Shown here piece by piece: positions 40,841 to 60,300 of a DNA stretch of 64,000 nt. The stretch is from a virus. Where the stretch lies: positions 94,799 through 158,798 of the IMG/VR virus record IMGVR_UViG_3300002835_000015, one strand, 5' to 3'. The first letter of the stretch is position 1, and each line of letters begins with the position of its first letter. The position numbers were made by a program, and so were the translations under genes. The notes below the pieces were generated by a model that saw nothing but the letters and a program-made list of their open reading frames with translations, was not told the origin of the DNA and made no database searches.

Positions 40841-40879
40841 AAGAAGAACCGCCGCAGGATTGCTCCCACGGCGGTTCCC
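40841..40879 (-). terminator. Terminator after DUF932 gene
   Basis: GAACCGCCG...CGGCGGTTC hairpin plus T-rich tail on minus. Confidence 0.7.
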
Positions 40880-40902
40880 CTCAGATCACCCTGCCACGAA
40901 GA

Positions 40903-41850
40903 TCAAACGGCGTTCGCAAACTCCATCGCCTTTTCCAAGGCCTTGATATTGTCGTTAGCATTAGCACCGAACCAGAGAGAGTCGAGGCGATTATCCTCAG
41001 TTCGACCCTTATTATAGTTCAGATATTCATTGTAACCATTATAAGCAGCCCACCAAGTACCACGCACATTCGTGGCCGATTGCTTCGGGCCTTCAACGAG
41101 GGCCAGAATCTCGTCCATGATATTACGGGTACGAGTCTTAATATCATCATCAACAGTACCTTCGATACCAAGCATCGTCTTTACATAGCGACGAATATCG
41201 CCCTGATTAAAGTTCTTCGACGCAAGAAATCGGAACTGCTCCGCAGTAGCCTCAAACTGTGAGTTGATATTATCCATGATATCACGAACCTGTTCCAGAT
41301 TATTCTTGCTGGAACGAGTATGGCGAATCCTAATAAGTTGGCTACTCTTATTATTATGGGCCATAGCCAGAGTATTCACGCATACGACACGAATAGGCGT
41401 ATAGCCAACACGAATCGCGGTCGTACCATCGTGCGAGTTACTAAGTAGAATAAACTTACTAACATCATCACCCGGAACAATCTCGCTGCTATCACGGTTG
41501 AGTTGTGCGAGAACCCAAACCTTTTGACCACTGTGAAGCGAACCAGCGGTATGGATGCCACACTCGCCAGCATCAATAAATGGCTGGAACCAATCAAAAG
41601 AATCCTTATTCTGGAGCGGCGTATAACGCGGCCCCACAACACCAAGGATACTACCGTCAGTCTTACGGTATGTAGCACGATGCGAAACCGGAACACCGTC
41701 AACGGTTTGCAGATCCTTAAGTCCAACTTCCCAATCCAGACCAGCAGCGACAATAGCATCTTCGACGCCAATATCAGCATCGACCTTATTGCCAAGACCG
41801 TGCCAAGGGGTAGCACCAACAAACATCATCTGTTCAACAGCAGCAGGCAT
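40903..41850 (-). CDS. DUF932-family phage/plasmid protein
   Basis: TPWHGLG, LLSNSHDG, TPIRVVCVNT, GTWWAAYN. Confidence 0.88.
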   Translation of the reverse strand: MPAAVEQMMFVGATPWHGLGNKVDADIGVEDAIVAAGLDWEVGLKDLQTVDGVPVSHRATYRKTDGSILGVVGPRYTPLQNKDSFDWFQPFIDAGECGIHTAGSLHSGQKVWVLAQLNRDSSEIVPGDDVSKFILLSNSHDGTTAIRVGYTPIRVVCVNTLAMAHNNKSSQLIRIRHTRSSKNNLEQVRDIMDNINSQFEATAEQFRFLASKNFNQGDIRRYVKTMLGIEGTVDDDIKTRTRNIMDEILALVEGPKQSATNVRGTWWAAYNGYNEYLNYNKGRTEDNRLDSLWFGANANDNIKALEKAMEFANAV

Positions 41851-41892
41851 ATCTAACTCCTTCGTGTAGGTTTCTCGTTCTCTGATGCACTG

Positions 41893-41920
41893 ATTATACA
41901 GTATGTTATCGGCGTGTCAA
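41893..41920 (-). promoter_or_regulatory. Consensus sigma70 promoter with GCCGATAA in the spacer
   Basis: Minus strand TTGACACGCCGATAACATACTGTATAAT. Confidence 0.8.
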
Positions 41921-42018
41921 GGGCCAAACTTGCGAAAAAATCTATTCGTCGTAAGTCGTTTTGCAGCAAGAGTTTACGTCGCGGCCGGGCCAGCAGGCTC
42001 ATCGTAAAGTCTTATGGG

Positions 42019-42513
42019 CTATAGATTTAGGAGAGGCAGTCCCAAGTCACGCTCACAAAGTTTAGAACCTTCATGGTCATCAGGATATCCACACTCTTCG
42101 GGCAGATAGCAATATACACCCAATGCTCTCGCTCTTGGATATTCTTCTTTAATAGTATCCGTAATATGCTTTATCGTTTTTCCAGAGCAAATAAGATCAT
42201 CAATAACCACATACCTAAAAGGAGCAACCCCCTCAGTTGTAAAATCGCTATATCTTCTTTCATCTTTTCTTACCACCAAAATGTTTTTGTTAAGAATCTC
42301 AGCAATCTGTGGAACAACCATCAGACCACTTACTCCGCAACAAGCGATACTGTCAAAGTCTTTACTAATCTTTCGCAGATCACAAACAGCCTTAATAATA
42401 ATCTTATTTCTAATCTTATGATTCAATACATGGCAAGTGTGGCTAGCACCTTGAATGATTCCGCCATCGGTATTACGAACTTCTTCGATTTGCATTTCGT
42501 TTAACGATTTCAT
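42019..42513 (-). CDS. Type I phosphoribosyltransferase
   Basis: VVIDDLICSGKTI PRPP-binding motif. Confidence 0.82.
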   Translation of the reverse strand: MKSLNEMQIEEVRNTDGGIIQGASHTCHVLNHKIRNKIIIKAVCDLRKISKDFDSIACCGVSGLMVVPQIAEILNKNILVVRKDERRYSDFTTEGVAPFRYVVIDDLICSGKTIKHITDTIKEEYPRARALGVYCYLPEECGYPDDHEGSKLCERDLGLPLLNL

Positions 42514-42516
42514 AAA

Positions 42517-42600
42517 TACGGACGGTACGATTCGAACGTACTAGAAGAGAGAAAGGATAATCCTTATAATAGATACTTGTCCCACCAAGTCGCATCCGTA
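42517..42600 (-). ncRNA. Non-canonical tRNA-like element
   Basis: 8-bp acceptor TACGGATG/CGTCCGTA, T arm GTACG-TTCGAAT-CGTAC, D-like ACTTG/CAAGT; atypical middle region. Confidence 0.55.
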
Positions 42601-42610
42601 ACGAGAGAGT

Positions 42611-42769
42611 TTATTCATCATCCAGTTCGTTAGCGATAGAGTGATAATCAAACTCCCAAGAGTTTTTCATATCTTCAATATCGTTATCATCCTCAAAAAC
42701 GAGATCGTCATCGTACAACTCGTCGATGTTGCTAGAATCATAATAATCACGATCATCATAATAAAGCAT
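42611..42769 (-). CDS. 52-aa highly acidic peptide
   Basis: GGAGAGG RBS; own TTGACA/TAGAAT promoter; 21 of 52 residues are D/E. Confidence 0.65.
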   Translation of the reverse strand: MLYYDDRDYYDSSNIDELYDDDLVFEDDNDIEDMKNSWEFDYHSIANELDDE

Positions 42770-42820
42770 AATACCTCTCCTTCAACCACTATTCTACACC
42801 AACGATCAACGATTGTCAAG

Positions 42821-42893
42821 TGGGGCCTGTGGGACTCGAACCCACGACCAAAGGTTTAAAAGACCCTTGCTCTACCAACTGAGCTAAAGCCCC
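42821..42893 (-). tRNA. tRNA-Lys(TTT)
   Basis: Cloverleaf; AGGGT-CT-TTT-AA-ACCTT. Confidence 0.92.
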
Positions 42894-43414
42894 AACTTAG
42901 CCGTATTATAACGGCATTTTTTCAGTTGTCAACCCCTACATTTTCGTAAGAGAAGGACTCTATTGGATACCCAGTTTTTTGAGATAGCACATCGAACATA
43001 TCATTCAAATCAATATCTTCTGGTACACTCAACCGGCACTCTGTCATAATCTTTTCAGAACCAATAGCAGTTTCACTAAACATATTATAGAAACGAATGG
43101 TTTTCATACTCTCTCCTTTGGTGGGATTCTACTCTAGAGCTATCGACTTGTCAAGAGGTCAAACTATAGTTTTTCTCGCTGACTATCTTCCACAATCGCA
43201 AATCCGTAGGATTAGGTAATCCAGTGGGTGTTTTTGTTTGGGCAGAACACCAAAAACTGCTCAGAACGCCAGCCTCCGTTTTGGTATTGTACTCTAGTTA
43301 TCGGCACTTGTCAATAGGATTCTTTAACTTGGTCTAAGTGCTTATACATAAAGAGTTTATAACAAAACCGGCCGCCAGCGTTTGACGTAAAGTCTTATGT
43401 CTCAATACTTTAAG

Positions 43415-43485
43415 CAAAGGCGGGTGGAATTGCACCACCATCTACGGTTTTGGAGACCGTCGTTCTACTATTGAACTACGCCAAT
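43415..43485 (-). tRNA. tRNA-Trp(CCA), acceptor stem with two T-T mismatches
   Basis: ACGGT-CT-CCA-AA-ACCGT; T loop TGCAATT. Confidence 0.75.
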
Positions 43486-43488
43486 GTA

Positions 43489-43573
43489 CGGCTGGAACAA
43501 GATTCGAACTTGTGGAGGATTTCTCCTCGTCGGTTTAGTAAACCGGTGCATTAGACCGCTCTGCCATCCAGCC
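43489..43573 (-). tRNA. tRNA-Ser(ACT), second copy
   Basis: Long variable arm GAGGAGAAATCCTC, CGGT-TT-ACT-AA-ACCG, G73. Confidence 0.85.
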
Positions 43574-43576
43574 AAA

Positions 43577-43648
43577 CTGGCAAGACAAGATTCGAACTTG
43601 TAACCTAGCGGTTAACAGCCGCTTGCACTACCGTTGTGCTACTTGCCA
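43577..43648 (-). tRNA. tRNA-Asn(GTT)
   Basis: AGCGG-CT-GTT-AA-CCGCT. Confidence 0.9.
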
Positions 43649-43653
43649 ATCAA

Positions 43654-43726
43654 ATGCCCGAAGAGGAATCGAACCTCTAACCAGCTGATCCAAAGTCAGC
43701 CGCTCTACCAGTTAAGCTATCGGGCA
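43654..43726 (-). tRNA. tRNA-Gln(TTG)
   Basis: GCTGA-CT-TTG-GA-TCAGC. Confidence 0.9.
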
Positions 43727-43730
43727 ATAA

Positions 43731-43802
43731 AGCCGACAGAGGGAATCGAACCCCCGACAGGTTGTTTACAAAACAACTACTCTACCACTGAGTTACGTCG
43801 GC
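43731..43802 (-). tRNA. tRNA-Thr(TGT)
   Basis: GTTGT-TT-TGT-AA-ACAAC. Confidence 0.9.
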
Positions 43803-44009
43803 AATCATCCTATTATACTCAATAATCATGATCCTCGCAAGCCCTACGCTTTTGGGCCGAACGAGTACGCTGACGCTTGGGACGATTATCGAACACGGTA
43901 AACTTGTGTTCCTGATGTCCCTGACGCATCTCCCAAGGCATAACTTTCTTGATTTTGATTACGTTGTGGTTGCGTCGAGGACGCATATCGTCGTTGTTGT
44001 GGAGGGTAA

Positions 44010-44633
44010 TCATGTTTGTATTCTATCGGACTTGTTGTTGTTTGTCAAGCCGTACTCACTAGCCCATTTAAAAATCGTAGTACGAGATACTTTAAGTTTT
44101 TTTGTCAGTTCTATATAAGTATAATCTTTTAATAGATTTTGTAAATATACTTTAGTTGGTTTGTTTAGTATTTTACTTTTTGCAAAACATTTGGGTGAAC
44201 AATATAGTTTGTTCTTCGTCTTATTTTCGCACACTGCACATTTTATAGTCTTGCGATATTTTTTTGGCTCATATTTAAACTCATTTTTGGATTCCACATG
44301 AGTTTCTCTATGACAGTTAGCACACAGAAGATCGCATTTATCTACTTCTTTTTTTAAGATATCTTTAGAATATTTTGTCATATTCATGCCACATATATCA
44401 AACAGTTTTTGAGATGGATCTTTATGATGAAACTCTAAAACTTCTGAATATTTAGCATACCCACATTTACAACATTTTCCTCCAGCATAGTCTATAAGTT
44501 CTTTTCTTATTCTAATACGACGATATTTAGTGGCCTCGCCAGAACATTTTAAACAACGATAGTATTTTCTATCATTAATAAGACTATGTTTTACAAAACC
44601 ATGTTTTTTACATTCTTTTATTTGATGTTTCAT
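44010..44633 (-). CDS. HNH endonuclease with C-terminal HTH
   Basis: CCKCGY...LEFHH...KCDLLCANCH; AAGGAG RBS before MKHQ. Confidence 0.85.
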   Translation of the reverse strand: MKHQIKECKKHGFVKHSLINDRKYYRCLKCSGEATKYRRIRIRKELIDYAGGKCCKCGYAKYSEVLEFHHKDPSQKLFDICGMNMTKYSKDILKKEVDKCDLLCANCHRETHVESKNEFKYEPKKYRKTIKCAVCENKTKNKLYCSPKCFAKSKILNKPTKVYLQNLLKDYTYIELTKKLKVSRTTIFKWASEYGLTNNNKSDRIQT

Positions 44634-45577
44634 GCTGTATCTCCTTCGGATACATAGATATACACCAAATGTCATCTTTTTGATGATACTGTACTATATT
44701 TTCTTTGTTCTGGCGGAAAATCGTACCATTGACCATTTTCATGTTGATAAAAAACTTTGTTTACGTTAGGATCATACGCCATTAAACAGTATTGTACCGG
44801 ATAAACTACCTTTGTCAACTCTTTTTGTTGAGTCAACTCTGGGATTTTTATATTCCCACTTTGATAATCTTTTACACCATTATAGGCCAACCCTAACAGG
44901 GCAATAAGCACACCAACCCATTGTAGCATTGTTCCGTTCCTTGTCAAGACCCGCTTCTCATCCATAGAGTATTTATCGGTCAAAAGGCCCGACCAACTTT
45001 AGAAAATCCTAAACCCTTACTCTGCAACACTTTACGACAAATCGCCGCGGCCCGCCTTGATGCAAAGTCTTATGCACCAAGGACTTATGGCTATTCAATC
45101 ATCATCCCGTGAAAGTTCCCACCCTGCGGCCCTAACTATACTTTTTGTAGCGATTACATTAGTTTTAGGAGTAGCACTAATATAATCTCTATATCCCTGT
45201 TCATCCACATAAAAGTGCTCGTCGATAGTATCGAACTTATTTGTTAGCAACAAACCACAAATAGCCGCTTCTAGAGCATTAGGTTGAGACAGAATAACTT
45301 CTAGTGTGCCGCTCTTTACATAGTATTTAGCCATGATCAACTCCCTAAAGAAATAACTACGGTATTATCATACTCACCAAAGTCTAAATCAACGATGAAG
45401 TCATTATCATCCAGAATAGACTCTAGTGTTTCTTGGCTAATCAAAGTGTCAGTATTAGTACCAAAACTAACGTCACTATTACAAATAGCATCCATTACAT
45501 CGCTATAGTTCAACTTATTATGTTCGCAGACTTCTCGTAGGTCGAGATATGTCCAAGCATAACTTTTCATATTATCC

Positions 45578-46285
45578 TCAGTGTGATGGAAACAACACGT
45601 TAGCCAAACCCTTGACGCACAAGTTACAGTCTACACTACCCTCGGTCGGTGTGCAAGTCACAACGCCACGACCACGACGGATTTCGGGGCAAGTGATAAA
45701 CTTTGTATCATTCAGCACAACCAGTTTAGGTAGACTCTTACGCCACACTTCCGCCGCTGCTTTACGCTTAGGACGTTTCTTGGCAATCTTTTCGTCGCTA
45801 TCGCACCACGCGAACAGTTTGAAACCTTGAGCCTTTGCCTCATTCATATCATTATCATTATGAACACTGGCATATACATTCATATACTTTTCCATAGCCA
45901 CAAGCCGACTATCATAGATATGAGTATAAAACCACATATCGGGCAGACTAGTACCATCGGCAAGAATACTCTCACAAGCCCACGTTACATTAGCAACATA
46001 GTCAAGGTCGAGTTGACCATCCTTGAACCAATCACCACGCTCATGCCAACGAATAGACTTCTCTTTACGAATCGCTTCCAGAATCATCGCTCTAATACGA
46101 TTCTTCTCGGTGATAAGATTTTGCATACCGGCAGGACGAACATTAGGATACATCTTCTCGGTTTGCTCAGCATAGCAACCGTCGCCCAAATAAACACAAG
46201 TAGGGGGACAAGTATCGCCAACGGGCCGACTCACGACCAAACAACCCTTGCCCAACTTATCGTTACCGTTTGCAACTTTCATCAT
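45578..46285 (-). CDS. Phage gp88-like Cys-containing protein
   Basis: GNDKLG, TCPPTC...CYA, IRWHERGD, WFYTH, TCPE. Confidence 0.6.
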   Translation of the reverse strand: MMKVANGNDKLGKGCLVVSRPVGDTCPPTCVYLGDGCYAEQTEKMYPNVRPAGMQNLITEKNRIRAMILEAIRKEKSIRWHERGDWFKDGQLDLDYVANVTWACESILADGTSLPDMWFYTHIYDSRLVAMEKYMNVYASVHNDNDMNEAKAQGFKLFAWCDSDEKIAKKRPKRKAAAEVWRKSLPKLVVLNDTKFITCPEIRRGRGVVTCTPTEGSVDCNLCVKGLANVLFPSH

Positions 46286-46452
46286 GTTTCTCCTATGCTA
46301 ACGATTCTATACTACAGTATCGTCATTGTCAAGAGAAAACTTTATAGGTTGTTGCAGAAAACGAAACAACTTGTAAGTGCTTGTGCTACAAGAGTTTACG
46401 TCGATCCCTGCGGCCCCGATTTGACGCAAAGTCTTATGATACAAGGATTTAG

Positions 46453-46526
46453 CGAGAATGACGGGACTCGAACCCGCAACCTCTAGCGTGACAGGCTAGC
46501 GATCTAACCGATTGATCTACATTCCC
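46453..46526 (-). tRNA. tRNA-Asp(GTC)
   Basis: CTAGC-CT-GTC-AC-GCTAG. Confidence 0.92.
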
Positions 46527-46529
46527 AAA

Positions 46530-46601
46530 TAGCCCCAAGAGGAATCGAACCTCTAACTAGACTTTAGAAGAGTCCTGTTATCTCCATTTAACTATGGGGC
46601 C
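46530..46601 (-). tRNA. tRNA-Arg(TCT)
   Basis: GGACT-CT-TCT-AA-AGTCT. Confidence 0.9.
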
Positions 46602-47223
46602 GTGTATCTATTATATCGTACTCATTCAATGCCGCAAGCCCCCACGGTTTCCCGTGGAGGCTGAAGCGGTTTGATGATAGAATCAGTCGATCAAGCCTCG
46701 ACCGTTTCCTTTTCGGTCTTAGACTTCTTAGGATTCGCAGAGTCGCCCGCAGCCTCGGCAGTCACACCAGTAACACGGGCACGCCACACCTTATAACCCT
46801 GCTCAGAAAAACTCTTGACCTCGCCAGCCTTGACATTCGCATGAACATCACCGGGCAGGGCATCATTCAGGGCAGCGGTCAGACTCTCCACAACCGAATC
46901 ACGATCCAGTTCGCTGGCAACAATATCAACATTGAAAGTAAACTTTTGCATAGTAATCTTCTCCAAAAAGTGTAATCGAACCAAGTAAAGTAATCATACC
47001 CAAACCATCATCACTTGTCAAGGTCTGATCCGAACTTTTCTTGTTTCGTGATCGGTCAGAGTCTTGTCGTGTGATGCTATCAGTATACCTTAGTTATCGG
47101 CACTGTCAACCCCTTTCCATTAGTATTTTTCACGATTGTTCCTAAGTCGTTATACGATAAGAGTTTACGTTGAACCGCCGCGGCCGTCCTCGCCGCAAAG
47201 TCTTATGCGGCAAGGCTTTAGGC

Positions 47224-47607
47224 TCAGGAGAGAAAACCCTCACAACCCTTGTCAACAAGGTCACGCAGCAGATTCTCAGCCGCTTCGGGAGTACTGAGAG
47301 TGACGCTGTTCTTTGTGCCTGGAGTTGCAGGAACGAAAGTATCGTACTTCCAGCCACCAACCAGAACATCGCTCCAATCCTTGGCTTCCTTCAAACCCCA
47401 TCCGGTGTGAGTTCGGATAGCCTTGATGCAGTAGATACGATTATCCAGAGTCATACCGCCAGTGATAGTAACGGTCTTGTTCCGATTCACCTTAAGAGCA
47501 TCCTCAAAGGCGATGGAGATCTTGTCGTAGATCGTATCATAGGATTCAATCTTAGAAAGAATCCACAGAGCCTCACGAACAGTCAGAGACACACTAATCA
47601 TATTCAA
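47224..47607 (-). CDS. Protein with ribosomal L7/L12 C-terminal-like domain
   Basis: RIYCIKAIRTHTGWGLKEAKDW matches the L7/L12 KI.VIK.VR..TGLGLKEAK motif. Confidence 0.7.
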   Translation of the reverse strand: MNMISVSLTVREALWILSKIESYDTIYDKISIAFEDALKVNRNKTVTITGGMTLDNRIYCIKAIRTHTGWGLKEAKDWSDVLVGGWKYDTFVPATPGTKNSVTLSTPEAAENLLRDLVDKGCEGFLS

Positions 47608-48053
47608 ACCCTTTCTTCCAAAATGTATACTTGTTTGCCGTTAGTTAGTAAAGTGGCGTATTCGGTATTGTCCCAAATAAACTCATTGCTATCGCTTTCT
47701 CGTCGCCAGTGCGGATCTCTCAATGGATTGTAGTATAACTTCTCAAGATTGTCAATAGGTAGAGCAGGATGAAAATCCTTCCTCAACATAACTTCTTCAC
47801 ACCGTACCCACCCACTAACATCATGCACACCAGCCTCAAATACCTGTTTAGCCTTATTTGGCCTATTCCACAGGATACAACTCCTCATTTCCAACTGGTA
47901 TTCTTTGGGGTCATAATAATACACATCAACAGTTTCTCCACCCTGCTTAACTTTAACTTGCCAAAACATATAGTGAGGCCCGTTACTCAGGTGGAATCGC
48001 ACTTCGCCATGTAGTGGTTTCTGTTTCATGTTTATAGTATACCTTATCGGCAA
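47604..48053 (-). CDS. Hypothetical protein
   Basis: ORF track. Confidence 0.55.
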   Translation of the reverse strand: MPIRYTINMKQKPLHGEVRFHLSNGPHYMFWQVKVKQGGETVDVYYYDPKEYQLEMRSCILWNRPNKAKQVFEAGVHDVSGWVRCEEVMLRKDFHPALPIDNLEKLYYNPLRDPHWRRESDSNEFIWDNTEYATLLTNGKQVYILEERV

Positions 48054-50110
48054 TCGTTTGTCAAGAACCTAAAACTTTTCTGTGAAATCCGAAGAAATAC
48101 CCATTTGTTCTTGAACATCTCCGTCTGTCAGAGTATCACTATCCATCATAAAATCCAGATCATCAAAAAATATCTCAATATCCGGATTGTCGCACATTAA
48201 ACTAGCAAAGTTAAAAATCATAAAATAGGCTGTTGCCTGAACCCAAGAAGCACACAAACCAGAATGAAGTTCAATAGTATCCCTATTGTTATAAACGTAC
48301 TCAATACAAGACTGTTTTGTATTATCACTCATGTTATTCCATACAGGAATATCAAACTTATTAAGTTCATAAGATAACTCACCCTTAGATTGTGTCATCC
48401 AATCATTACGATAAGCATCATACGTTTCCTCAATCATGCCAATAGCAATCTTTCGACTTTGCATAAAATCTCCTTTTCGGGCATTGTACCTTATCGACCA
48501 AACCTTGTCAATACCTTAAAAAATGTACCTATACTGGTCTAACGTCCAGTGGTGTTTTAGACTTCCACCGCTTATAAAGTACACATATTCTCGCTGACTA
48601 CAGCCACCCCAGCCAAATCCGTAGGATTAGGAAAAACAATGTCGGCTTCCGCCATACTCGACCAACATTTCAGATAGCCTCTTTTGATATCATTGTGGCT
48701 ATCCCCGTCCATTGTTTCCCTAAGTATATCTCTATTATCGGGCGTTGTCAAGAGTTTTCTTTAAAAAATCCTAAATGGTTGAACCATAAGACTTTACGTC
48801 AAGTCTCTGTCGCCCCCCTTATCCTAAACTCTTGCGAGTAAAGGACTTAGGAGTTCTTATAAACTAGATCAACATACTTATCGACCAGTTCACTTACCGA
48901 TATCTCATGTAATCCAATCAACTCTTTAGCCTTGTCTACATTATGCTTATTTACAGCGGCCATTCTATTCTTGAAAAAACTAAGAATATAAATCATAGCC
49001 TTTGTACGATCTTCATTCATGATGGATAATCCTTTGGGTAATCGTTTTCTGGTCGTTTTGGTTTTGGCTGTCCCTCATATGGCATCCACCACGGAGCATC
49101 CATACGATCTACTATACCGGGACTTTCTTCACAAATCAAGATATGTTCACTTACCGGATCATCCTTATGAATCTCATACCTTCCCTGCCACACCCCAATA
49201 TACTCGCCAAAGTAATAAACCTTTTGGCCGTTGATGGGGCGACGAGGACCAAAAAAACTAATCCATTCCATTACTCACCCCCATAACTACGATATATCTC
49301 GTAGCATTTTTCGATAGTCTCATCAGACTCATCATCATTTTTTACAGAGATACCATTCTCATACTTATGAAACAGTTCGCTAAAAAGTCCGTAAAGTTTT
49401 CTTTCCTGTTGTCTACACTTTTCAATATTCATTATTTTCCCCTCGTAATAATCAAACACATTGTACCAGTATCACTATCGGTATATCTCACAGTCTCATG
49501 AGGCCCGTAATACCAAGCATCATTCTTGGAGAAGTTGAATACAACCTCATCGGTCTTGAGTTGAGTATCATTATACCCACCCTCATACCCAAGAGTCAAT
49601 ACCCTCATATCACCGGGATAACCCTTCAACTGCTCAATCAGTTCATTAACGGTCATTCTTCATTCTCCGGAGGAAACATATTGTTCCAAGATTCATCATC
49701 GTTACCGCTCAACAGAATCTCACGCTGTTCAGCATTAAGATGAGGAAAGCACTGTTGAAGATAACCACCATTAAGCCACTCGTTAGCAGCACTCAGTTTA
49801 ACAGTGATACTAAACGGCTTAGCACTCATGGTGTAACCTGAAAAAGTAAGATTCTCACCATCAACCGTTCGGGTCACCTTATCACTCAGACAATACCGCT
49901 CAAAGCCAATCATAGTTTTTCTCCTTGTGCTACCATTCTACACTAGTATTATCGGCTTGTCAATAGGCTTTTCTTTAGCAATCCTAAGTTGTTGGTGGGT
50001 AAGACTTTACGACGAATGTGGCCGCGTCAGTTTGTCCTAAACTCTTAGAGGATAAGCATTTAGAGCGAACCCCTTTTGAATATGGTATACCGGCTGTTAA
50101 TGGATCGACT

Positions 50111-50188
50111 TAGTGGATAGATGGATTCGAACCATCAACTCCTCTTGTATTTAAACAAGTGGAACTCTACCTTTGAGTTATACCCACC
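50111..50188 (-). tRNA. tRNA-like RNA with extended (22-nt) anticodon arm
   Basis: Canonical acceptor, D (ACTC-AAAGGTA-GAGT) and T (GATGG-TTCGAAT-CCATC) arms; anticodon arm CCACTTGT-TTAAAT-ACAAGAGG. Confidence 0.65.
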
Positions 50189-50199
50189 GATAGTTTTAC

Positions 50200-50445
50200 A
50201 AATAGTGTCCGGTATCACGCACTATTCAACCCTAACGGCTCTCGCAGTCTTAGGTTTCTATCCGACCCCTGTTTGTTACCAGCGAACCTTTTACGCCCCG
50301 ATTCTTACCCTCACCAGTATGGAGCGACCATACCGATTTGGAACCGCCCACGCTCACTTTCGTCCAGTTGCGAACTGGCTCAGGCAAGAGGCGACGGCTA
50401 CTGGTTGTATTGCTCGTGGTGAGGATGCCATCCCTCATAGATTGG
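50200..50445 (-). ncRNA. Candidate ~245-nt multi-helix ncRNA
   Basis: Promoter TTGACA-N16-TATAGT at 50450-50477; at least five complementary helices (see findings). Confidence 0.5.
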
Positions 50446-50935
50446 TATCACTATACAGTATATAACCCTACTGTCAACCCCGGCGATGATTACGTCTTCG
50501 CTGAACGGGAGGTTTATCGTGATAGGTTATCCAATCTAGTCCCGTCGCATGGACCCACGGATGTTTGTTAGATTTTTTGCCTTCGTCGTATTTCGTCAGA
50601 GCAATAGCAGATTTCATCAGCATAGTAGCCATAGTTCGGCTGGTCAGGCCATGCTTTCAAAACTTCCCTACAATCTTTAATCGTAAAAAGAAGTTCAGAA
50701 TAAGTCATCTTCTTAACCTTTTTAGCGTAAGCCGCATGATCCATAAACTTAGTGGCAAACATCTTTGTCTCCTGTGTCATGATTATACACTCCTATTATC
50801 GGTCTGTCAAGAGCATATTCTGTAGAAAAAACTTTTTGATGCAAGTCTATAGGAGATAAGAGTTTACGTCGAATCCGGCCGCGGCGGTTTGCCCTAAACT
50901 CTTGGTAGTCAAGAACTTAGAGCGAACCAGCCTTT

Positions 50936-51439
50936 TTAGGCTTCTACCTCATCATCAGAGAAAAACTCTGCCAGATTATAATCTTCCCATACCTGAACAG
51001 GAATCAACCCCTTATCATCCCCATATTCAGTATACAAATCATCTCCATCCTTCCAAATGCCACAATAACCCATACCCGGTTCAAAATAGGACGCAATCAC
51101 CCTAAAACCCCTCAATACCAGTTCCTCATACAGTCCAATAGGCGGCGACCACGCACTATCAAAACTCATAGTGGCCTCATTATCCACAATGGTAGGATTC
51201 AATCCATGAACTTCTCCGTTATCACTACCAATATCCCATTTAGTTCCCCAGTTATTTACACACCAGTTATACCAATAATCAGGATTAGATTCGTCGGTAA
51301 TAAGTTCGCCCTGCTCATCTTTTGGTACGGGCAAATAATGTTCACAAGCCTTACCTTCCTTATAGGCAAGAACAAACTCCATAACCTTAGACCGATCCTC
51401 ATGGCTAATCGTCAACTTATTCAAACACCAGTTAGGCAT
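50936..51439 (-). CDS. DUF1281/YubB ferredoxin-like protein
   Basis: MPNWC, WYNWCVNNWGTKWD, FDSAWSPP, YFEPGMGYCG. Confidence 0.8.
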   Translation of the reverse strand: MPNWCLNKLTISHEDRSKVMEFVLAYKEGKACEHYLPVPKDEQGELITDESNPDYWYNWCVNNWGTKWDIGSDNGEVHGLNPTIVDNEATMSFDSAWSPPIGLYEELVLRGFRVIASYFEPGMGYCGIWKDGDDLYTEYGDDKGLIPVQVWEDYNLAEFFSDDEVEA

Positions 51440-51553
51440 AACTGTCTCCTTTAGTGCGATTCTACTCTTATCTTATCGGTTGTCAAGAGTCTAAACTTTT
51501 GGCTGACTATACCCACTCAGCCCAAATCCGTAGGATTACCTGATACAAGCCAA

Positions 51554-51625
51554 TGACCCCACGGAGAATCGAACTCCGATCTCCACCGTGAAAGGGTGGC
51601 GTACTAGCCGTTATACAATGGGGCC
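51554..51625 (-). tRNA. tRNA-Glu(TTC)
   Basis: CCACC-CT-TTC-AC-GGTGG. Confidence 0.92.
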
Positions 51626-52085
51626 AATATATTCACCAGACTACCTTCTCAATCCTGAGATCACTACCATACTTATCTTTAGCCTTTCTCCAAGCGTCAT
51701 ACTGGCTAAACGATACCACATAGCCCACAAATCGGCCATGTTGGAACACTCTCCACGACATTCCTGCGAGACATTGGGTTGTAGTCATAAACTTTCTCCT
51801 TAGTCGCATTATACACATTATCGACCAGTTGTCAATACCATCTTTAGTTTTTCTCTAAATCCTTATCCCATAAGACTTTATATCAAATCGGGCCGCCCAT
51901 CATTGTCCTAAACTCTTATTCACAAACACTTTAGGTCAACACAATATCATCCCCCGATACATAATACTGATCGTCAGCATGATTCAATACAAGATACATA
52001 GGAGGATTAGTTTTATCCGATACGTCAATAATAACAACATCCTCATCCTGCATAATATCATGAACAATATTGCCAATCTTATACA

Positions 52086-52553
52086 TCATACCCTCTTATA
52101 AACTGTAGTGATAATATCTTGATTATTCTTATAGAACGTCCGCACCTTCACAGACGATTTAATCTGATCTTTCGGATACTTCTGAATATATTCCCAAGCA
52201 TCCTTAATATGTTCGCTTGTCCAAATCCGGTCAACAAACTCACCAACCCGTACAGTAAACGCAATATCAACAGTTCCGTTCTTGCTAATCACCAGAAACA
52301 AGAACACAATATGCTTCTGTTCATCAGTTATATCATGATACTTACTAGGGTCAATCCATTGCAAGTCCTGTTGCTTTTTACATTCGACCAAACATCCCAA
52401 CAAATCATTGGAATAATCATACAGAATATGGCTATCTCTTTTCCAGCCACTATGCCGTGTGAGAATATCATGAAGCATCTGCTCTTTTCCTCCCCTACCT
52501 TTTAGGTTAATGGAAGAAATAGCCTCTACGTTGATACTGCTAATAGGACACAT
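52086..52553 (-). CDS. Possible PD-(D/E)xK nuclease-fold protein
   Basis: LYDY...LVECKKQ motif. Confidence 0.35.
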   Translation of the reverse strand: MCPISSINVEAISSINLKGRGGKEQMLHDILTRHSGWKRDSHILYDYSNDLLGCLVECKKQQDLQWIDPSKYHDITDEQKHIVFLFLVISKNGTVDIAFTVRVGEFVDRIWTSEHIKDAWEYIQKYPKDQIKSSVKVRTFYKNNQDIITTVYKRV

Positions 52554-52744
52554 GATTTCACCAAGTGTGATTGGTTAGCAGTCGCCAATATACTGTCAGT
52601 ATCGGGTTTTGTCAATAGAATGCTTGAGATTTTTCTAAGTCTATGGCAGATAAGACTTTACGTCAATCCCATGCGGAGTGCCTCGCCCTAAACTCTTGGC
52701 TTGCAAGAACTTAGAGCGAGGTCACTTCACCACCACGAGAAATA

Positions 52745-53152
52745 TCAGAAGAGAAGGTTTGCCAAACCCGTCTTGAATGCTGCACCAGCCAACAGCGGCC
52801 TACGGCAGTTCACGGTACGTTCAGCGTAGAAGTTGCGAATCTTACCGTCCGCAGTCTGGCACGTTACCAGATGATTGCTACGCTGAAAGTTGCTATCGTT
52901 GCGACGATATGCACTACGAGCATTCAGCCTGCGAATAGCATTATCGTCCAGCACATGAACACTCAGCACCTTTGCCAGATAACGCTCAGGGTCACCAGCA
53001 TTAGGCTGGAGATATTCAAAGTTATAGAACTCTCCGGCCTTTGCCGTTGACAGCGACCCATGAGCACCACCATAGATGCCATAAGCAGCAAACATAGCAA
53101 GGCAGCAAACAACAACCGTAGCAATCGAACCAAAAAGAAGAACATCGTTCAT
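52745..53152 (-). CDS. Membrane-anchored hypothetical protein
   Basis: Start at MNDVLL downstream of promoter 53199-53226; N-terminal TM. Confidence 0.6.
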   Translation of the reverse strand: MNDVLLFGSIATVVVCCLAMFAAYGIYGGAHGSLSTAKAGEFYNFEYLQPNAGDPERYLAKVLSVHVLDDNAIRRLNARSAYRRNDSNFQRSNHLVTCQTADGKIRNFYAERTVNCRRPLLAGAAFKTGLANLLF

Positions 53153-54850
53153 AAAAATCCCTTTCGTGTAGTGAAGACCAACCAAACCAGATAGCCCCAG
53201 TATACATCTATTATCGGCATTGTCAAGCCCTATCCTTGAAGAAATCTTTTTGCCACAAGTCCTTATGCCACAACAGTTTGTGAAAAACGCCTGCGGCCAC
53301 CCATGCTGCAAAGTCTTATGCAGCAAGGGTTTATGGCTCATTCAAAATCCACGAAGATAATCTGATTGTATCCTCGCGGCTTCACGGTATAACCATCACC
53401 ATAGTCGTAGGTATCGGCCTTTACCGCAGTCATATTCGCCAGAGACTTAGCCTGTCGAATAACGCTACGCTGAGACTCAGCATTACGAGGCTGAAACTCA
53501 TACCGCTTCACCCAACCATAGTTAGCCTCACCGCCAAACGTATCAGTAACCGTCACAACACACTTCGTCATTTTCACTGTCTCCTTTGGTTTTATCTTAT
53601 CACACAATCAAACGTTGTCAAGCATACGGATTCAAGATATCAGCAGCCCAATCCTCAATACGGTTACCAGCAGCACCACGGCTACTGTCTTTCCTGATAG
53701 ATATCTTGCGAACATCATCCGCAAAAAACGTACCACATTCTCCCATGCTACAGTTGTCGAGGGTAACAATAAGAAACTCGTTACCATTGTCGATAACAGC
53801 ATGAGACATGGTGCCAAGAGCATCAGCAGCAGCGAGTCTCATTTCCTGAAGGGTAATCATGTTATTTCCAGTTGTTACGGCGACATTCTTCAGCCCATTC
53901 AGCATCTTCACGACGAGTACGATCATTGTACCCATAACCACCATTAGTCAGGTAGTTATCTTTCACAGCATCATAGCCATCATCACTATCCACAAACGGC
54001 TCGCAATGTTCCTTGCAACGCGAGCAAATATCACCACGATAGATCGTCACACCACAGCAGTCACTCAACATTTTTCACTCTCTTTCTTACTCTTTATATC
54101 GGTATTCTACCAGCCTAAACTTTAGAAGTCAAGCATATTTTTTTGAAAATCGTAAGTTGTTGTGTCTCAATAGTTTGCGTCAAATGCGGCCGCTGGGCCT
54201 TGGCGTAAACTCTTACGCATCAAGGCTTTAGATCACTTGGTCTTAGAGTCGTTCATTTTCTTTAAGGCTTCCACAATCATAGGGATTCCAGAAAACATTT
54301 TTTACCCCATAAGAAAAGTTGCGATACAACCACAAACAAACGCCACAGACAGGACAATCTTATCCTTAATGGTCATTTTATTTCCTTAATGGAAAAACAA
54401 GATCACAAACAAACCAAGCACAACCAAGGCCAACAACAAATCCCACACTGAAACTATTCCAGTCTAGATATATATCGGCCATCCGTAGCCCTTTCCTTTA
54501 GTTATACTTCATCCGAATCATCATCTGAACAATCTCAGGACGAGTCATGATACACTCCCACATATACCAATCACAGAAGTTGAGCCAACCCTGCTCAGTA
54601 ATCTGCCCACGCTGAAACATAGTCCACATGGTTTGATACATTTTACCACCGTTTTCCTTATTAGCATTCTACACTACTATTATCGACTTGTCAAGCCCCA
54701 GTCTTCAATATTTCTAAGTCCTTACTGCACAACAGTTTGCGTCAAACGCTGGCGGCGGGCCTTGGCGTAAAGTGTTACGCTTCAAGGCTTTAGGTCACCA
54801 CCGGCCAGTACCATACCATTTCAATAGTTCATAGACATTTATTGCATACA

Positions 54851-55156
54851 TCACACCACCATGCCTTCCATAAAAGGATATTCCTTACCATTTACAGTCA
54901 CGAACCACTCATACTTGTGCTGATGCACACGAACGGGGCTATACTGGTTGATTCTATCTTTGGTAGTGCTGGTTTGCCATCCCCCCGTTTGCAGGGTATA
55001 GGTATTGTCAGCATGAATCTTTACCACATAGGTACTGTGGAGCAAAATACCAACCGATCCACATGGTAGGATTTCAGCGTAGGTGTTGTTTCCTACCTTG
55101 CGGCTATCCTTATTCCGCTTGCCACGAACCATAGAAACTGCTTCGGCGTGAGTCAT
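54851..55156 (-). CDS. Hypothetical phage early protein
   Basis: GGWQTSTTKDRIN motif; RBS. Confidence 0.6.
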   Translation of the reverse strand: MTHAEAVSMVRGKRNKDSRKVGNNTYAEILPCGSVGILLHSTYVVKIHADNTYTLQTGGWQTSTTKDRINQYSPVRVHQHKYEWFVTVNGKEYPFMEGMVV

Positions 55157-55625
55157 ATTCTTTCCTTTGGTGGTGATGATGTTAGGATTCTACGCTATAA
55201 AACTTATTCTGTCAAGTCTCAACAAAATCAGTAAGTTCATTCTGATTGAAAAGCCCAAACTGGCCATTCTCATCCTTGACGAAAAACATGATCAGCGGCT
55301 TTCCGTTTTCGATGATAACGTCGAAACTGTTGACCACAACCTTAGTACCGGAAAGAGTCTTTGCGGTCATGGTTACTACGTTGGTGATATCATTGGTGAT
55401 CATGTTTTCTCCTTTGTTCTTATATCGACATTATACAGTCCGTTCTTTAGGCTGTCAACAAGAAAATAAAAGATTCTTGATTTGTTCTAAGGTCTTGAAT
55501 CTAAAGAGTTTACGTCAAGTCTGTGCGGCCCGATTCGTCGTAAAGTCTTATGCGACAAGTAGTTAGATTATTATGATATTGGTGTATAAACCATAGTCTA
55601 CATTTCCATACCGGAGACGAGTACT

Positions 55626-56024
55626 ATGGCAAAATATGATCCACAAGAATATCAGCGAAATAAAGAGTCTTACAAGATTAGAAACCAAAGATACAAGAGC
55701 AAACATAGGTCTATGGTGAACCAAAAACAATCGGAATATAGATCAAAAACAAAAGATAAAATCAATCAGTATTCTAAAAGTCGTAGAAATAAAATAAGGA
55801 TTCTATATGATGAATACATGAAAGATAAATCTTGCTTACATTGTGGATATGATGATTCTCGCTCTCTCGTATGGCATCATACCGACCCATCACAAAAGAA
55901 AAATGGAGTTGTTCAGTTGGTTGGTAAAAAACACGGGTGGGATACTATCATGACAGAAATAAACAAATGTATATGCTTATGCCATAATTGTCATAATATA
56001 TTACATAATCACCAGTCACCATAG
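55626..56024 (+). CDS. HNH endonuclease
   Basis: CLHCGY...LVWHH...KCICLCHNCH; opposite strand; GGTGTATAAA at 55581. Confidence 0.85.
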   Translation: MAKYDPQEYQRNKESYKIRNQRYKSKHRSMVNQKQSEYRSKTKDKINQYSKSRRNKIRILYDEYMKDKSCLHCGYDDSRSLVWHHTDPSQKKNGVVQLVGKKHGWDTIMTEINKCICLCHNCHNILHNHQSP

Positions 56025-56308
56025 TCATCCATTGAAGGATTATAGTATTCATCTTCGGCCCAGCCTACTGACCCCATAGCGCTGTCGTGATCTCCATCCA
56101 TGCTGTCATCATAGTGATCATCGTAATCATCATCGTGGTCATCATCCAACTGGCTCTCAATCTCATGATCGGCATCGGCATGATAGGCTGAACTATCCTC
56201 GCCATAGAAAGCGTCATGGTAATCGTAGTTATAATCGTCAAAGTGGCTGCTCATAGTATCTTCCTCATAAGAGTTTTCGGGATCGAACAAAGGATCAGGA
56301 TGACTCAT
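56009..56308 (-). CDS. Asp/His/Tyr-rich acidic protein
   Basis: Start at MSHPDP; DDDHDDDYDDHYDD tract. Confidence 0.65.
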   Translation of the reverse strand: MSHPDPLFDPENSYEEDTMSSHFDDYNYDYHDAFYGEDSSAYHADADHEIESQLDDDHDDDYDDHYDDSMDGDHDSAMGSVGWAEDEYYNPSMDDYGDW

Positions 56309-59300
56309 CTTTTTACTCTTTTGCAATGGTACAGAAACAAAGCCCAACATAGGCCACAACGAACAGCATAGCACTAAACATAGTTTTTGTCAAGCCTCCA
56401 CGATTTCGGGATAAATATCTTCGACCAGAATCTCAGCCAGACCCGTAACCTCTGCCCAATCCATCGGGTGGCAGTCGGGTTCGTCAATCGGCTCTACCAT
56501 AGGCTCGATGATACCCTGCTCTGCAAGGTAACTCAGTTGGCTGTTTGCTTCGTCTAAGTCGTGAAACATTTTCGAGCCCTCGTTGGTTGTGATCATCATG
56601 CCACGATTATACACATAATATCGGCCAATGCAAGTGGAGATATGAATCTTTTTCCTTACAATGCTGCAAGTTTCGCAACTCGTTGACGGATAAGAGTTTA
56701 CGTCAAACGCGGGCGGCGGGCCTCGTCTCAAAGTCTTATGCGGCAAGGCTTTAGGTCAACCCCTCCAACCGAAGGGTGAAACTTCCTCGCCCGATGCCAT
56801 AATGGCAGCATACTGGTCGGCCAACGCTGCCTTACGCTCAGCCGAACCGGGCTTGCCAACGGGTACAATCATGGTATCCTCTCCCCCATTGTAGCGAGAG
56901 TCAACCTTTTCCGCCTTAGCCTTACTACCCTTGCGGAGAGCCTTGCGATTGAACTTGTGAATCTTTTCACTGTGAATCGGGCCATACAATCCATCGGCAA
57001 GGGACGGCTGATGCCGAGTGGCCATACCAACAAAGCACATGCGAACCTGACGCTTGGCATCTTCGATAATCTTGAACTTGGTAGCCATTTTCTTTTTCCT
57101 CTTGGTGATGAACGTATTTTACAGAAACTTTTTTGTCTTGTCAACCCCTCTAGTGGGGGTCATGAGACGCCCATCCAAGAGGCTTTTTCCATACAGAAGT
57201 TATAGAACATATCGTTCAGCATTTCTTCGTAGTTGCTTTCCGTGAGTCTACGCCGATCATTCGTCGCCTCGCACTCAGCAAACAGTTTACCGTCTGCCGT
57301 ATACAGTAGCACCACATTGTACGTTTCGCTACCCCAAATCTGACGCAAAGCATTTTTGATTTCGTTGGATATCATTTTGTTTCCTCTTTCTCTTATATCG
57401 TCATTATACAGGGTATTTCTTAGAGATCAAGCAAAAAGTTTCCTTAAAAGATCGCAAGGTTCGTAAGTCGTTATGCGACAAGACTTTGCGAAAAACCGAG
57501 CCGCCACCGCTCGACGTAAAGTCTTGCGGCTATTGAGTTTACGTTGCGTGAATGAATACCTTTTCGCTCGTGGTCTTATTTGTGATCGTCACAATCCAGT
57601 TACGACCACTACCATCCTCACGCATGATGCCATTCACAAGGCCAGCATAAACCCTACCCTTCGGATCGATCACACTAGTATACTTACCAGCGATCATGGA
57701 CGAGAAGATAGTATTGAGGCTGTTCTGTCGATTGGCGTAGGCGGTTCCGAACATTTTCTTTTTCCTTGTGGTGATGATGAAGTTATTTTACAGAAACTTT
57801 TTTGCTTGTCAATCCCCTCTATCGTAGGGTAATCAAGCCATTGAAGTGCGAGAAGGTAAGAGTAAGAGTCTTGCCAGGATACTTCTGGTCGATATACGCT
57901 TGAGCGGTACTCTTGCGATTATCGGTAGCGGCAACGTGTTGCACTACCATACCATTCTCATCCGTAACCTTCCAAACTTTCTTTTCCACAATCCTAGGAA
58001 GGGTGCCGATGAAGTCGTTGATATGAGTTGCTTGTTCCATCTTCTTTCTCTCTTTCTTGTGATTCTATTCTATCAAAACTTTTTCGTATCGTCAACCCCC
58101 TCAAATGGCGAAGGTGTTCATAAACCTTTCGGCCTCATATGAACTCTTGAACGTAGCAAGCAGTTGACGGTGATATCCATTCGGATACTTCTTTTCCCGA
58201 TAAACCTTATACTTACCCTTCACAACGATCAGAACCAGATTTTCCATTTCTTTCTCTCTTTCCTTTTCTCTTATATCGACATTATACCATCCATACTTTA
58301 GAAGTCAACAAAAATCTTTCCTTACAATATCGTAAGATTTCTTACAGCAAATATCATGCCAAAACTCTGCTTATCTTAAGTTGTTATGCTGTAAGAGTTT
58401 GCGTCAAGCCCCTGCGCCCCGCCTCGCCGTAAAGTGTTATGTAGCAAGGATTTACGTCGAGTGCATACCTCTAGTGGGGGGTTAGCCCACCTTGAACATG
58501 AAAACCCTAGAAATCCCACATGACGATACCCCCCAACTGGGGCAATCATACAGCCAATCGGGCAACCCCTTACAATGGGGAGGATGATAGCCGTCAACGT
58601 GTAGCGTATTATTATCATCCGGCAACCGCTGTACGATCAGGCCATGAGATTCTAGTTTGCAAATCATTTCAGAAACAGACATTATTTTTTCCTTGGGTTG
58701 CATATCATATCCAAGATTATACTTTTTTCGCAAGTATCTTACCTTATCCTTAGTAGCATTTGCGTCCATTCCAATCCGATTCAATCTTGCAAAACTATTC
58801 ATTTTCTTTCCTTGTGAGAGTATTCTATATAATCTCCTTACTGGGGAGATTAGATTCCCTCTCCATCGTCAAGACCGGGAATGTAATCGATATCAGCATG
58901 AGAAACATAGTCGGCGTTGAGCCGACCAACGTTGCCTTCCTCGTCGCGTACAGTAAGGGTATTATCGTCGTTCACCGACTCGACTCGATAAACCGGATAG
59001 TTCTCACAATCAAGCCCATATTCTTCATCACTCTCAACCCAATCGCCAACTGAAAAACTGCCGATCATTTTCTTTTCCTTTTCTCTTCTGTCTTACTTCT
59101 TATATCGACATTATACAGACATATCTTTAGGTTGCAAGCGAAATCTTTTATTTTTTTTATTTTTTTTAGAGAATATATTATTCTTTATTCTTTGGCATAG
59201 CATTTGCTAGGGTCATTTAACGTAAGTCCTTATCCCATAAGAGTTTAGGGCAACTTTTGCGGCCATAACTCGTCGTAAAGTCTTACGCCACAACACTTTA

Positions 59301-59609
59301 GGGCAAGAGGGGGTTTTTTCGTTTTATATCAAGGGGTTTAGAAAATCGCCATACCTTGCGGGTGGTCCAAAAACAATAAGGACCATCATAACAAATTGGC
59401 CAGTTTATTAGCCATTTTCCCCTATAATAATCTTTTATAAATCATCTTTGTGCCGATACAAGTATCAATAATGAGCCCAGTAGCATCGATTCTAAAAAAA
59501 ATGGCCGGGTCATCATATCAATTGGCCAGTTTCCACCAACTAACAATCAACCCTGCACCATATTTTATTCATCTACAGATTACTTACTATATATTAGCCG
59601 AATTCCCCC

Positions 59610-60054: not shown

Positions 60055-60300
60055 TTAAGAAAGCACACTCTGCTCAACCTGAATATTCGTTGATGCTGTA
60101 GTAGCAGGCTTTGTCTTTCGTGGACGTCCTCTGCTCTTCTTTAGTGATAACTTTCTTCGCTGTCTACGAACCATGGCAGTACTAATGTTTTGTCCAGTTA
60201 TTTTGCTTAGTGATGCTGCTAAACTCTCATCACATAATACATTATGATTATTTTGAATATAGTCCAATTCTGAGGGTGCCCACTTTTTATAATTAGCCAT
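60055..60300 (-). CDS. Small DNA-binding protein (HTH-like plus AT-hook)
   Basis: KKWAPSELDYI...; KSRGRPRK AT-hook. Confidence 0.65.
   Translation of the reverse strand: MANYKKWAPSELDYIQNNHNVLCDESLAASLSKITGQNISTAMVRRQRRKLSLKKSRGRPRKTKPATTASTNIQVEQSVLS

Follow-up and report, generated by a model that had tools for sequence, protein, structure and literature searches.

The early 'host-takeover' regions of large phages contain many unknown genes, and the expression and shuffling of these regions are poorly understood. Upstream sites whose action depends on the face of the DNA helix are established at several promoters (CRP class I sites at -61.5, -71.5, -82.5 and -92.5, the Fis sites of rrnB P1, the K-boxes of ComK). 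The p4 sites of phage phi29 are also upstream activator sites that work on one DNA face (PMC3100819). From T4-like phages, promoter-early stem-loops (PeSLs) have been described (Arbiol et al. 2010, PMC2839356; Comeau et al. 2014, PMC4122927), cassettes with a transcription-terminating stem-loop that recombine in pairs to mini-circles. Here, an 84-nt element is reported that recurs between the early gene cassettes of a phage known from the 158,798-bp IMG/VR record IMGVR_UViG_3300002835_000015; the analyzed window is the last 64 kb of this record (64,000 nt; genes of the region on the minus strand; coordinates refer to the window unless stated otherwise). The features that characterize PeSLs at the sequence level are present at this locus, i.e. 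a sigma70 promoter with an AT-rich upstream region, a stable stem-loop, and the accompanying stop codons, ORFans (open reading frames (ORFs) without relatives) and recombination breakpoints. Each element follows an early gene cassette directly and precedes the strong promoter of the cassette after it, and its distance to this promoter changes in steps close to the helical repeat. A literature search for a described equivalent of the element found none. The phage encodes rIIA, NrdA, 12 tRNAs and a tmRNA; against cultured phages, megablast gave no close relative and blastn gave tRNA matches only.

The family was defined in the window by a repeat search (16-18 copies) and completed by an nhmmer profile search of the whole genome, which resulted in 19 full, ungapped copies, all located at 40737-59302 and hence restricted to the early array. 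A pattern scan of IMG/VR detected the element in 51 stretches from approximately 35 viral contigs, in which nhmmer identified 296 copies (first related set); a 90% identity cut-off reduced these to 143 non-redundant copies, distributed over 38 stretches (loci) on contigs of related viruses, 123 of the copies with a promoter (at least 10/12 hexamer matches, within 170 nt). A divergent set of 124 copies (84 with promoter) was reached via loci encoding a conserved neighboring protein, and 307 copies were measured in further loci including divergent variants. By model coordinates the length was exactly 84 nt in 19/19 window copies, in 296/296 copies of the first related set and in 299/307 copies of the further loci. 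In the direction of transcription the consensus reads ccTAAA.CCTTg..gCaTAAGACTTTACG.CgAggc.gg.CGcccg.gtTTGaCGTAAACTCTTat.....AA.gACTTA.ga: four TAA-N4-TTA-like boxes, all containing near-2-bit columns, follow each other with start-to-start spacings of 15/38/15 bp and enclose a G+C-rich core of 12-14 bp, and the promoter-side half, which forms no hairpin, is conserved as the sequence TTGACGTAAACTCTTAT-N5-AA-N-GACTTAGGA. The opposite strand of every window copy scored 34-58 bits, nearly as high as the forward strand; the element is thus quasi-palindromic (dyad symmetry). Nearly all copies in the related sets have one orientation relative to transcription within their locus. The spacing of 53 bp that separates box 3 from box 1 and likewise box 4 from box 2, recorded in a first-pass annotation of the window, was invariant in all window copies. 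The conclusion drawn there that the sites lie on one DNA face has to be restricted to alternate boxes, because neighboring boxes (1-2 and 3-4) are 15 bp or approximately 1.4 turns apart.

The element begins where the upstream gene ends, a feature missed by the first-pass annotation: the stop codon of the upstream ORF was located within -4 to +3 of the first element base in 67/114 cases, often as a TGA directly abutting the element or as the TAA of box 1, and two window copies abut tRNA 3' ends (tRNA-Trp and tRNA-Asp). On its other side follows an A/T-rich spacer, presumably resembling an UP element, that is homologous at the promoter end with a common TTTTTYAAGAAA stretch. These spacers form homologous families that have the promoter-proximal 16-17 nt in common, the longer class containing an extra A6GA or a duplicated CTTACGA unit. 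A near-consensus sigma70 promoter succeeds the spacer (10-12/12 hexamer matches for 17/19 copies). An element upstream of each early promoter, as had been assumed, is not borne out: approximately 38 strong minus-strand promoters were counted in the array, 19 of which follow an element.

The distance between element and -35 hexamer was determined in the window for the best-scoring TTGACA-N16-18-TATAAT site of the minus strand. All 15 distances of the first-pass annotation (whose palindrome coordinate equals the start of the copy plus 4) were reproduced exactly: 21 bp for 43335, 48772, 51856, 52636, 54153 and 54715, 22 bp for 49985, 32, 34, 32, 30, 30 and 34 bp for 41952, 47143, 50842, 53256, 55488 and 57464, respectively, 42 bp for 46374, and 42/43 bp for 56676. 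Four copies absent from that list have distances of 26 bp (40737), 63 bp (45006), 69 bp (58373) and 86 bp (59219). With all 19 copies included, the Rayleigh test gave R=0.62 at a period of 10.5-11 (p ~3e-4, or 0.002 when periods were scanned and a uniform distribution served as null), and R=0.43 (p=0.16) with distinct distance values only; since the cassettes are related, the phasing in the window is not decisive by itself. Steps of approximately 10.5-11 bp were seen in the relatives, too: the 123 non-redundant promoter-bearing copies grouped at 20-22 bp (35 copies), 29-35 bp (63), 41-45 bp (8) and 62-63 bp (6), with a few longer distances and none at 23-28, 36-40 or 46-61 bp. When one value per spacer family was used (families from alignment-based clustering), R was 0.62-0.64 at 10.5 bp (p=1e-5 for 26 families, 2e-3 for 14 families). 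The uniform spread in a larger set that the first-pass annotation had named as evidence against phasing was therefore not found, as the distances are clustered both among all 123 copies and per family. Phasing is real and beyond chance in the closest relatives. According to the distance classes, the center of the proximal box is positioned at about -60.5, -69.5 to -74.5, -80.5 to -84.5 and -102; as at class I sites, the site centers lie whole helical turns from the promoter, more loosely so in divergent relatives.

The pairing potential of the element was compared with shuffles that preserve each alignment column (fold and complementarity within copies). The upstream half (positions 6-37) forms a stem-loop, overlooked in the first-pass annotation, with a mean minimum free energy of -9.9 kcal/mol versus -5.3 kcal/mol for the shuffles (z = -31); with flanks, 71% of the copies reach -8 kcal/mol or less. 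Register i+j = 43 covaries (sum z = 16.3; pair 13-30 occurs as C-G, T-A and A-T), whereas slid registers show no covariation. Two hairpin architectures were found, a stem flanking box 2 (61 copies) and a pairing of box 1 with box 2 (26 copies); loop centers were at positions 22 and 15. The sense strand was the more stable one in 86 copies and the less stable one in 56 (Wilcoxon p = 1e-4). This covariation together with the sense-strand bias argues that part of the element works at the transcript level: selection acts on the presence of a stable hairpin immediately behind the stop codon, irrespective of its precise form and most likely in the RNA.

The remainder of the element behaves differently. 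The promoter-side half revealed neither hairpin excess (z ~0) nor base-pair covariation, the whole element showed no fold excess versus column shuffles (z = -1.6), and RNAalifold on 19 copies gave no consensus structure. Pairing of one half with the other (i+j = 83) exhibited negative covariation at variable positions (sum z = -13.6), e.g. at pair 23-60 (z = -3.6), where a C.C or G.G mismatch is preferred. Conservation of the boxes, of the core length and of the promoter-side half thus concerns sequence and geometry and not pairing, as is characteristic of sites that a protein binds on duplex DNA; rigid length, conserved boxes and the non-covarying promoter-side half are consistent with a protein bound at a defined face relative to RNA polymerase. 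At the gathering score of Rfam 15 no match to the element was obtained, the window matches being tRNAs and the tmRNA only. Three further roles were considered and rejected: an intrinsic terminator, as G+C-rich sequence and not a U-tract follows the stem-loop; a terminator hairpin in the G+C core, as real copies fold worse than column shuffles; and a hidden sigma70 promoter at the internal TTGACG, for which inspection revealed no -10 hexamer at 16-18 bp.

Homology breakpoints of the array versus relatives are enriched in the elements (13 of 55 distinct breakpoints; 10.6% expected), and 6 further breakpoints (of 55) are located in the adjoining spacer or promoter (6.6% expected); the remaining ones include element-free promoters. 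Most of the array proteins obtained no family assignment. Transcription termination was surveyed by a terminator scan (17 sites vs 13.6 expected; two touch elements, both in the G+C core). The sole strong canonical terminator of the 18.5-kb array (40841-40882, minus strand; 19-bp stem and T-run) follows the DUF932 gene at the array's far end, just upstream of element copy 1, and because of this position long read-through transcription across the cassettes is suggested.

As a tentative reading, to which we would give somewhat less than an even chance, the element is a PeSL-like boundary between cassettes, with a hairpin at the transcript end and, for the promoter that follows, a platform to which a protein binds in a face-specific manner. 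Read along the minus strand, each boundary consists, in order, of the stop codon or tRNA 3' end, the stem-loop (approximately positions 6-37), the G+C core, the conserved half, the A/T-rich spacer and the sigma70 promoter. At the RNA level, the stem-loop may act as an attenuator or 3'-end stabilizer that marks where the upstream transcript ends. At the DNA level, the four boxes would be bound by an oligomeric protein, more likely phage-encoded than host IHF, and the quantised spacer would set the proximal box on the face and at the positions that class I activators use to contact the C-terminal domain of the RNA polymerase alpha subunit; the bound complex could have a stimulating or insulating effect on the adjacent early promoter, or switch it off later. 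Since the module is repeated, it may also serve as a preferred recombination joint between cassettes. From the platform idea of the first-pass annotation, a face-specific DNA-bound factor is retained as the best fit to the promoter-side geometry; IHF as this factor and the link to each early promoter are not. A more far-reaching version appears rather doubtful, according to which a nucleoprotein complex dedicated to this purpose by the phage docks at the element and couples the transcript end to face-specific control of the next promoter (enhancer or timed shut-off) and defines the joints of cassette exchange; it would then be a 'punctuation mark', without described counterpart, of a large clade of uncultured 160-230-kb phages.

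Several observations weigh against the composite model. Half of the array's strong promoters are element-free. In the divergent relatives (84 promoter-bearing copies) the distances are more broadly spread (R=0.25, p=0.005) and include a 36-bp class; the second class of the closer relatives is 29-35 bp, i.e. 7 bp or about two thirds of a turn, wide, and a single spacer family drifts from 29 to 33 bp. The steps of 10-11 bp could reflect the modular make-up of the spacers and not selection for a helical face, because the spacer classes are families by descent, distinguished from one another by an A-tract or by the duplication of a 10-bp module. Furthermore, the hairpin is not a canonical intrinsic terminator, as it is not followed by a U-tract, and the candidate binder, a helix-turn-helix (HTH) and AT-hook protein encoded at the array head (see below), is not specific to loci with the element.

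The strongest competitor dispenses with a face-sensing protein. According to it, the element is a PeSL-type module that acts at the transcript level and in recombination only: the stem-loop attenuates transcription or stabilizes the upstream RNA, the conserved sequence provides homology for cassette shuffling, and the distance steps were inherited from a few founder spacers that arose from UP-element subsites (proximal, or proximal plus distal) and 10-bp duplications. This is a real possibility, although less probable than the composite model. Stem-loop covariation and sense bias, the start of the element at the stop codon, the enrichment of breakpoints in elements and at other promoters, the weak phasing in divergent relatives, and the homologous spacer families with a common promoter-proximal 16-17 nt that differ by an A6GA or CTTACGA unit are all as expected from it, and the PeSLs of T4-like phages are composed of equal parts, i.e. 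stop codon, AT-rich region, sigma70 promoter and stem-loop (PMC2839356, PMC4122927). However, it does not account for a length kept strictly at 84 bp in hundreds of copies, for the conservation of the G+C core and of a promoter-side half that does not pair, or for the empty bins at 23-28 and 36-40 bp, the latter although indels of 1-2 bp occur within families; moreover, 60-80% identity over 84 bp makes a poor substrate for homologous recombination. The proposal of the first-pass annotation that a host protein of the IHF/HU or nucleoid type bends the DNA at YAA-N4-TTR boxes, as an enhancer, anti-silencer or sink, also provides for phasing with the -35 hexamer; the boxes fit CAA/TAA-N4-TTR, and a sigma54-like TGGCAY-N5-TTGCW motif, a type often partnered with IHF, is found beside two copies and in the spacers of relatives. 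Nevertheless, this explanation is unlikely. The claimed match to the IHF core is of low information (YAA-N4-TTR) and most boxes begin with TAA and not CAA; of 13 matches to the full IHF site WATCAANNNNTTR in the window (8.4 expected), none is located within the 19 elements, and the flanks of the boxes do not resemble the A/T tract usually seen at strong sites for IHF. The phage contains neither an HU/IHF-family (PF00216) gene nor one for an enhancer-binding ATPase, only half of the promoters have an element, and a scan of 185,579 bacterial species (one genome per species; 596 Gb) did not find the element, the three pattern hits of at most 14.5 bits being at chance level (true copies: 44-74 bits on the best strand).

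Two further explanations were considered. If the whole 84 nt formed an irregular hairpin in read-through RNA (box 2 with box 3, box 1 with box 4) that is cut like the RNase III sites of the T7 early genes, mRNAs and tRNAs would be freed from transcripts that span several promoters; the complementarity of the consensus halves (65% Watson-Crick and GU pairs at i+j=83, in runs of 5-11 pairs), several copies that do fold in this way, copies abutting tRNAs, and the single strong canonical terminator at the array's far end would suit such processing. Yet it is quite unlikely, given the negative covariation at variable positions including the preferred C.C or G.G mismatch, the equally good fold of column shuffles and the competing local hairpin; nor does it offer a reason for the phasing with the -35 hexamer. 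A dedicated mobility site, be it an integron attC-like site, a unit of the repetitive extragenic palindrome or bacterial interspersed mosaic element (REP/BIME) type, or a cassette-carrying miniature inverted-repeat transposable element, is suggested by the imperfect double palindrome with four boxes directly after cassette stop codons, by the ORFans and tRNAs in the cassettes and by the breakpoints at elements. We consider it very improbable: no match to a tyrosine recombinase (PF00589) was obtained in the genome, every cassette has its own promoter, the long-range pairing is without covariation, sequence and not structure is conserved, and the copies are 60-80% alike, confined to one array, and show no target-site duplications. 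An integron attC site was therefore rejected on account of the recombinase, the promoter-bearing cassettes and the pairing.

With regard to possible binders in the composite model, the first gene of the leftward array (60055-60300, minus strand) encodes an 81-aa protein for which a three-helix HTH (pLDDT, the predicted local distance difference test, >90 over residues 10-50) and an AT-hook with an invariant RGRP (RRQRRKL..KK.RGRP) were predicted, and which is 60-90% identical across hundreds of metagenomic clusters (>380 homologous clusters). It matched no Pfam family, and Foldseek gave weak HTH-type matches only. The protein is a natural candidate DNA binder for A/T-rich boxes. As an element-specific binder it was rejected, as homologs are also encoded in loci where the 10 kb downstream of the gene contain no element; locus L075, for example, contains the gene and no repeat array within 10 kb. 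Divergent from the array, a 218-aa protein (60532-61188, plus strand) with a sub-threshold Sigma70_r2 match and a 271-aa protein (61149-61964, plus strand) with a weak PHROG match to the T5 D5-like transcriptional regulator (E = 3.5e-4) are encoded; both are candidates for the early-to-late switch. An identity of the latter as D5-like regulator was not accepted, the PHROG match being weak and tblastn and Pfam matches missing.

All 19 copies are located on the minus strand. At 21 bp from their -35 hexamers are those at 43331-43414 (-35 at 43309-43314; abutting the 3' end of tRNA-Trp, 43414/5-43485), 48768-48851 (-35 at 48746-48751; the upstream stop codon is the TAA in the first box), 51852-51935 (-35 at 51830-51835), 52632-52715 (-35 at 52610-52615), 54149-54232 (-35 TTGACT at 54127-54132) and 54711-54794 (-35 at 54689-54694), accompanied at 22 bp by 49981-50064 (-35 at 49958-49963). 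The next class comprises 53252-53335 (-35 at 53221-53226) and 55484-55567 (-35 at 55453-55458) at 30 bp, 41948-42031 (-35 TTGACA at 41915-41920; overlapped by the stop of the upstream ORF) and 50838-50921 (-35 at 50805-50810; type B hairpin, in which box 1 pairs with box 2) at 32 bp, and, at 34 bp, the reference copy 47139-47222 (-35 at 47104-47109; strong upstream-half hairpin of -19.5 kcal/mol) and 57460-57543 (-35 TTGATC at 57425-57430; spacer with a CCTTGCGA...TTAAGG module). Copy 46370-46453 (-35 at 46327-46332; abutting tRNA-Asp, 46452/3-46526) has a distance of 42 bp and copy 56672-56755 (-35-like TTGCAT at 56628-56633) one of 42/43 bp. The others are copy 1 at the distal array end (40737-40820; 26 bp; weak TAGACG/TACAAT promoter, -35 at 40710-40715), 45006-45089 (63 bp; sigma70 -35 at 44942-44947), 58373-58456 (69 bp; -35 TTGACT at 58303-58308; spacer with a sigma54-like TGGCAT-N5-TTGCT from 58361 and a CTTACGA...TGTAAGG module) and copy 19 at the array head (59219-59302; 86 bp; -35-like TTGCAA at 59132-59137). 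Copy 45006 retains a TAAAG-N17-CGATAA motif where the 21-bp class typically has it.

The latter motif is part of a wider pattern: a bipartite YTAAAG-N17/18-CGATA(W) motif has 14 matches in the genome at a spacing of 17-18 and none at 14-16 or 19-23 (minus-strand sites at 43326, 45001, 46344, 48763, 49977, 51846, 54124, 55449, 57422, 58300 and 59129), and it occurs in relatives, too. CGATA is located at -26 to -23, i.e. inside the sigma70 spacer, or at -5/-4 in 116/123 element-linked promoters, these registers being 21 bp apart, and in copy 45006 the motif is kept despite a decayed sigma70 -35. It could be an overlapping promoter for the phage sigma-like protein, or an operator. Between element and -35 hexamer, the class of 33-36 bp contains a hairpin module CCTTACGA-N3-5-T(T/G)TAAGGAAAC (window 57431-57459 and 58309-58345; also in relatives), the first arm of which is a repetition, 10 bp further downstream, of the element's last box. 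The long spacers of divergent copies harbor extra modules, namely the CCTTACGA...TGTAAGG hairpin and sigma54-like motifs. The sigma54-like TGGCAY-N5-T[TG]GCW was detected 7 times in the genome versus 0.44 in shuffles (window 58361 (-), 59193 (+), 41805 (-) and 32097 (-); genome 27662, 52643 and 93265 (+)), two sites adjoining elements, and is clustered in alternating orientation in the spacers of relatives (L107, L127); for a sigma54-activator ATPase gene, the search of the phage gave nothing better than E = 0.048.

In addition, promoter-flanked, non-coding stretches beside tRNAs contain a 51-nt repeat with a AATCCTACGGATT hairpin (40540-40590, 43173-43223, 48588-48638 and 51497-51547; in relative L127 at 14793-14858 and 18546-18611), which may represent a small stable RNA comparable to those T5 RNAs to which no function is assigned. 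Two tRNA-Ser genes with anticodon ACT were predicted by ARAGORN (28379-28465 and 43488-43574, minus strand).

Compared with known systems, the early/tRNA region of phage T5 (NC_005859) resembles the present array in its minus-strand small ORFs, tRNAs, stable RNAs and many strong sigma70 promoters, some of which overlap annotated terminators in T5; the weak D5-like regulator match adjoining the array adds to this likeness. As a model for the element T5 was rejected, as the repeats there are the promoters themselves, no upstream 84-bp element is present and nhmmer gave no hit. REP/BIME sequences of enterobacteria, for which roles in mRNA 3' protection and in IHF or gyrase binding were reported, are similarly extragenic palindromic units at gene 3' ends that form inverted pairs around a short linker. 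They differ as G+C-rich hairpins distributed over the whole chromosome from the present A/T-rich boxes with a G+C-rich linker, the copies of which are located in one phage array and each precede a promoter. IHF sites, which the host's IHF binds and bends sharply, and the element boxes have the CAA/TAA-N4-TTR core in common, whereas the element copies are without the full consensus (WATCAANNNNTTR), its WATC part is missing and the boxes mostly begin with T and not C.

The element also resembles face-dependent activator sites: the center of its proximal box is found near -60.5, -71 (+/-2), -82 and -102 in one-turn steps, with an A/T-rich UP-like tract between site and -35 hexamer; the ComK tetramer on two AT-boxes and the four p4 sites, like the element, combine several dyad boxes at fixed spacing. 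The element deviates in that its box sequence is unlike any of these, its tolerance is wider (29-35 bp), and it also has a transcript-level hairpin and marks gene ends. The likeness to class I, Fis, ComK and p4 sites is accordingly taken as a functional analogy, and no membership is claimed.

With its fixed length and four boxes, and found hundreds of times across a clade of uncultured phages, the element is a sharply defined handle on early regions; its copies always mark cassette boundaries and precede very strong promoters, relative to which they prefer certain helical positions. Should it be read by a protein, it would be a new phage transcription control module and an insulator plus strong promoter part for synthetic biology; if none does, the PeSL idea of mobile terminator-promoter cassettes would be extended beyond T4-like phages. 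Indeed, PeSL and element cassettes are alike as repeated, intergenic sequences of plastic regions in which ORFans and tRNAs abound, with mosaic joints in the repeats, and in their order of upstream stop codon, stem-loop, AT-rich stretch, near-consensus sigma70 early promoter, Shine-Dalgarno sequence and start codon. In PeSLs, however, the stem-loops take varied positions, mostly inside the promoter, whereas here the stem-loop is the first third of a rigid 84-bp element with four boxes, dyad and direct symmetry and a G+C core. What is new relative to PeSLs is this rigid four-box element at a quantised distance from the -35 hexamer.

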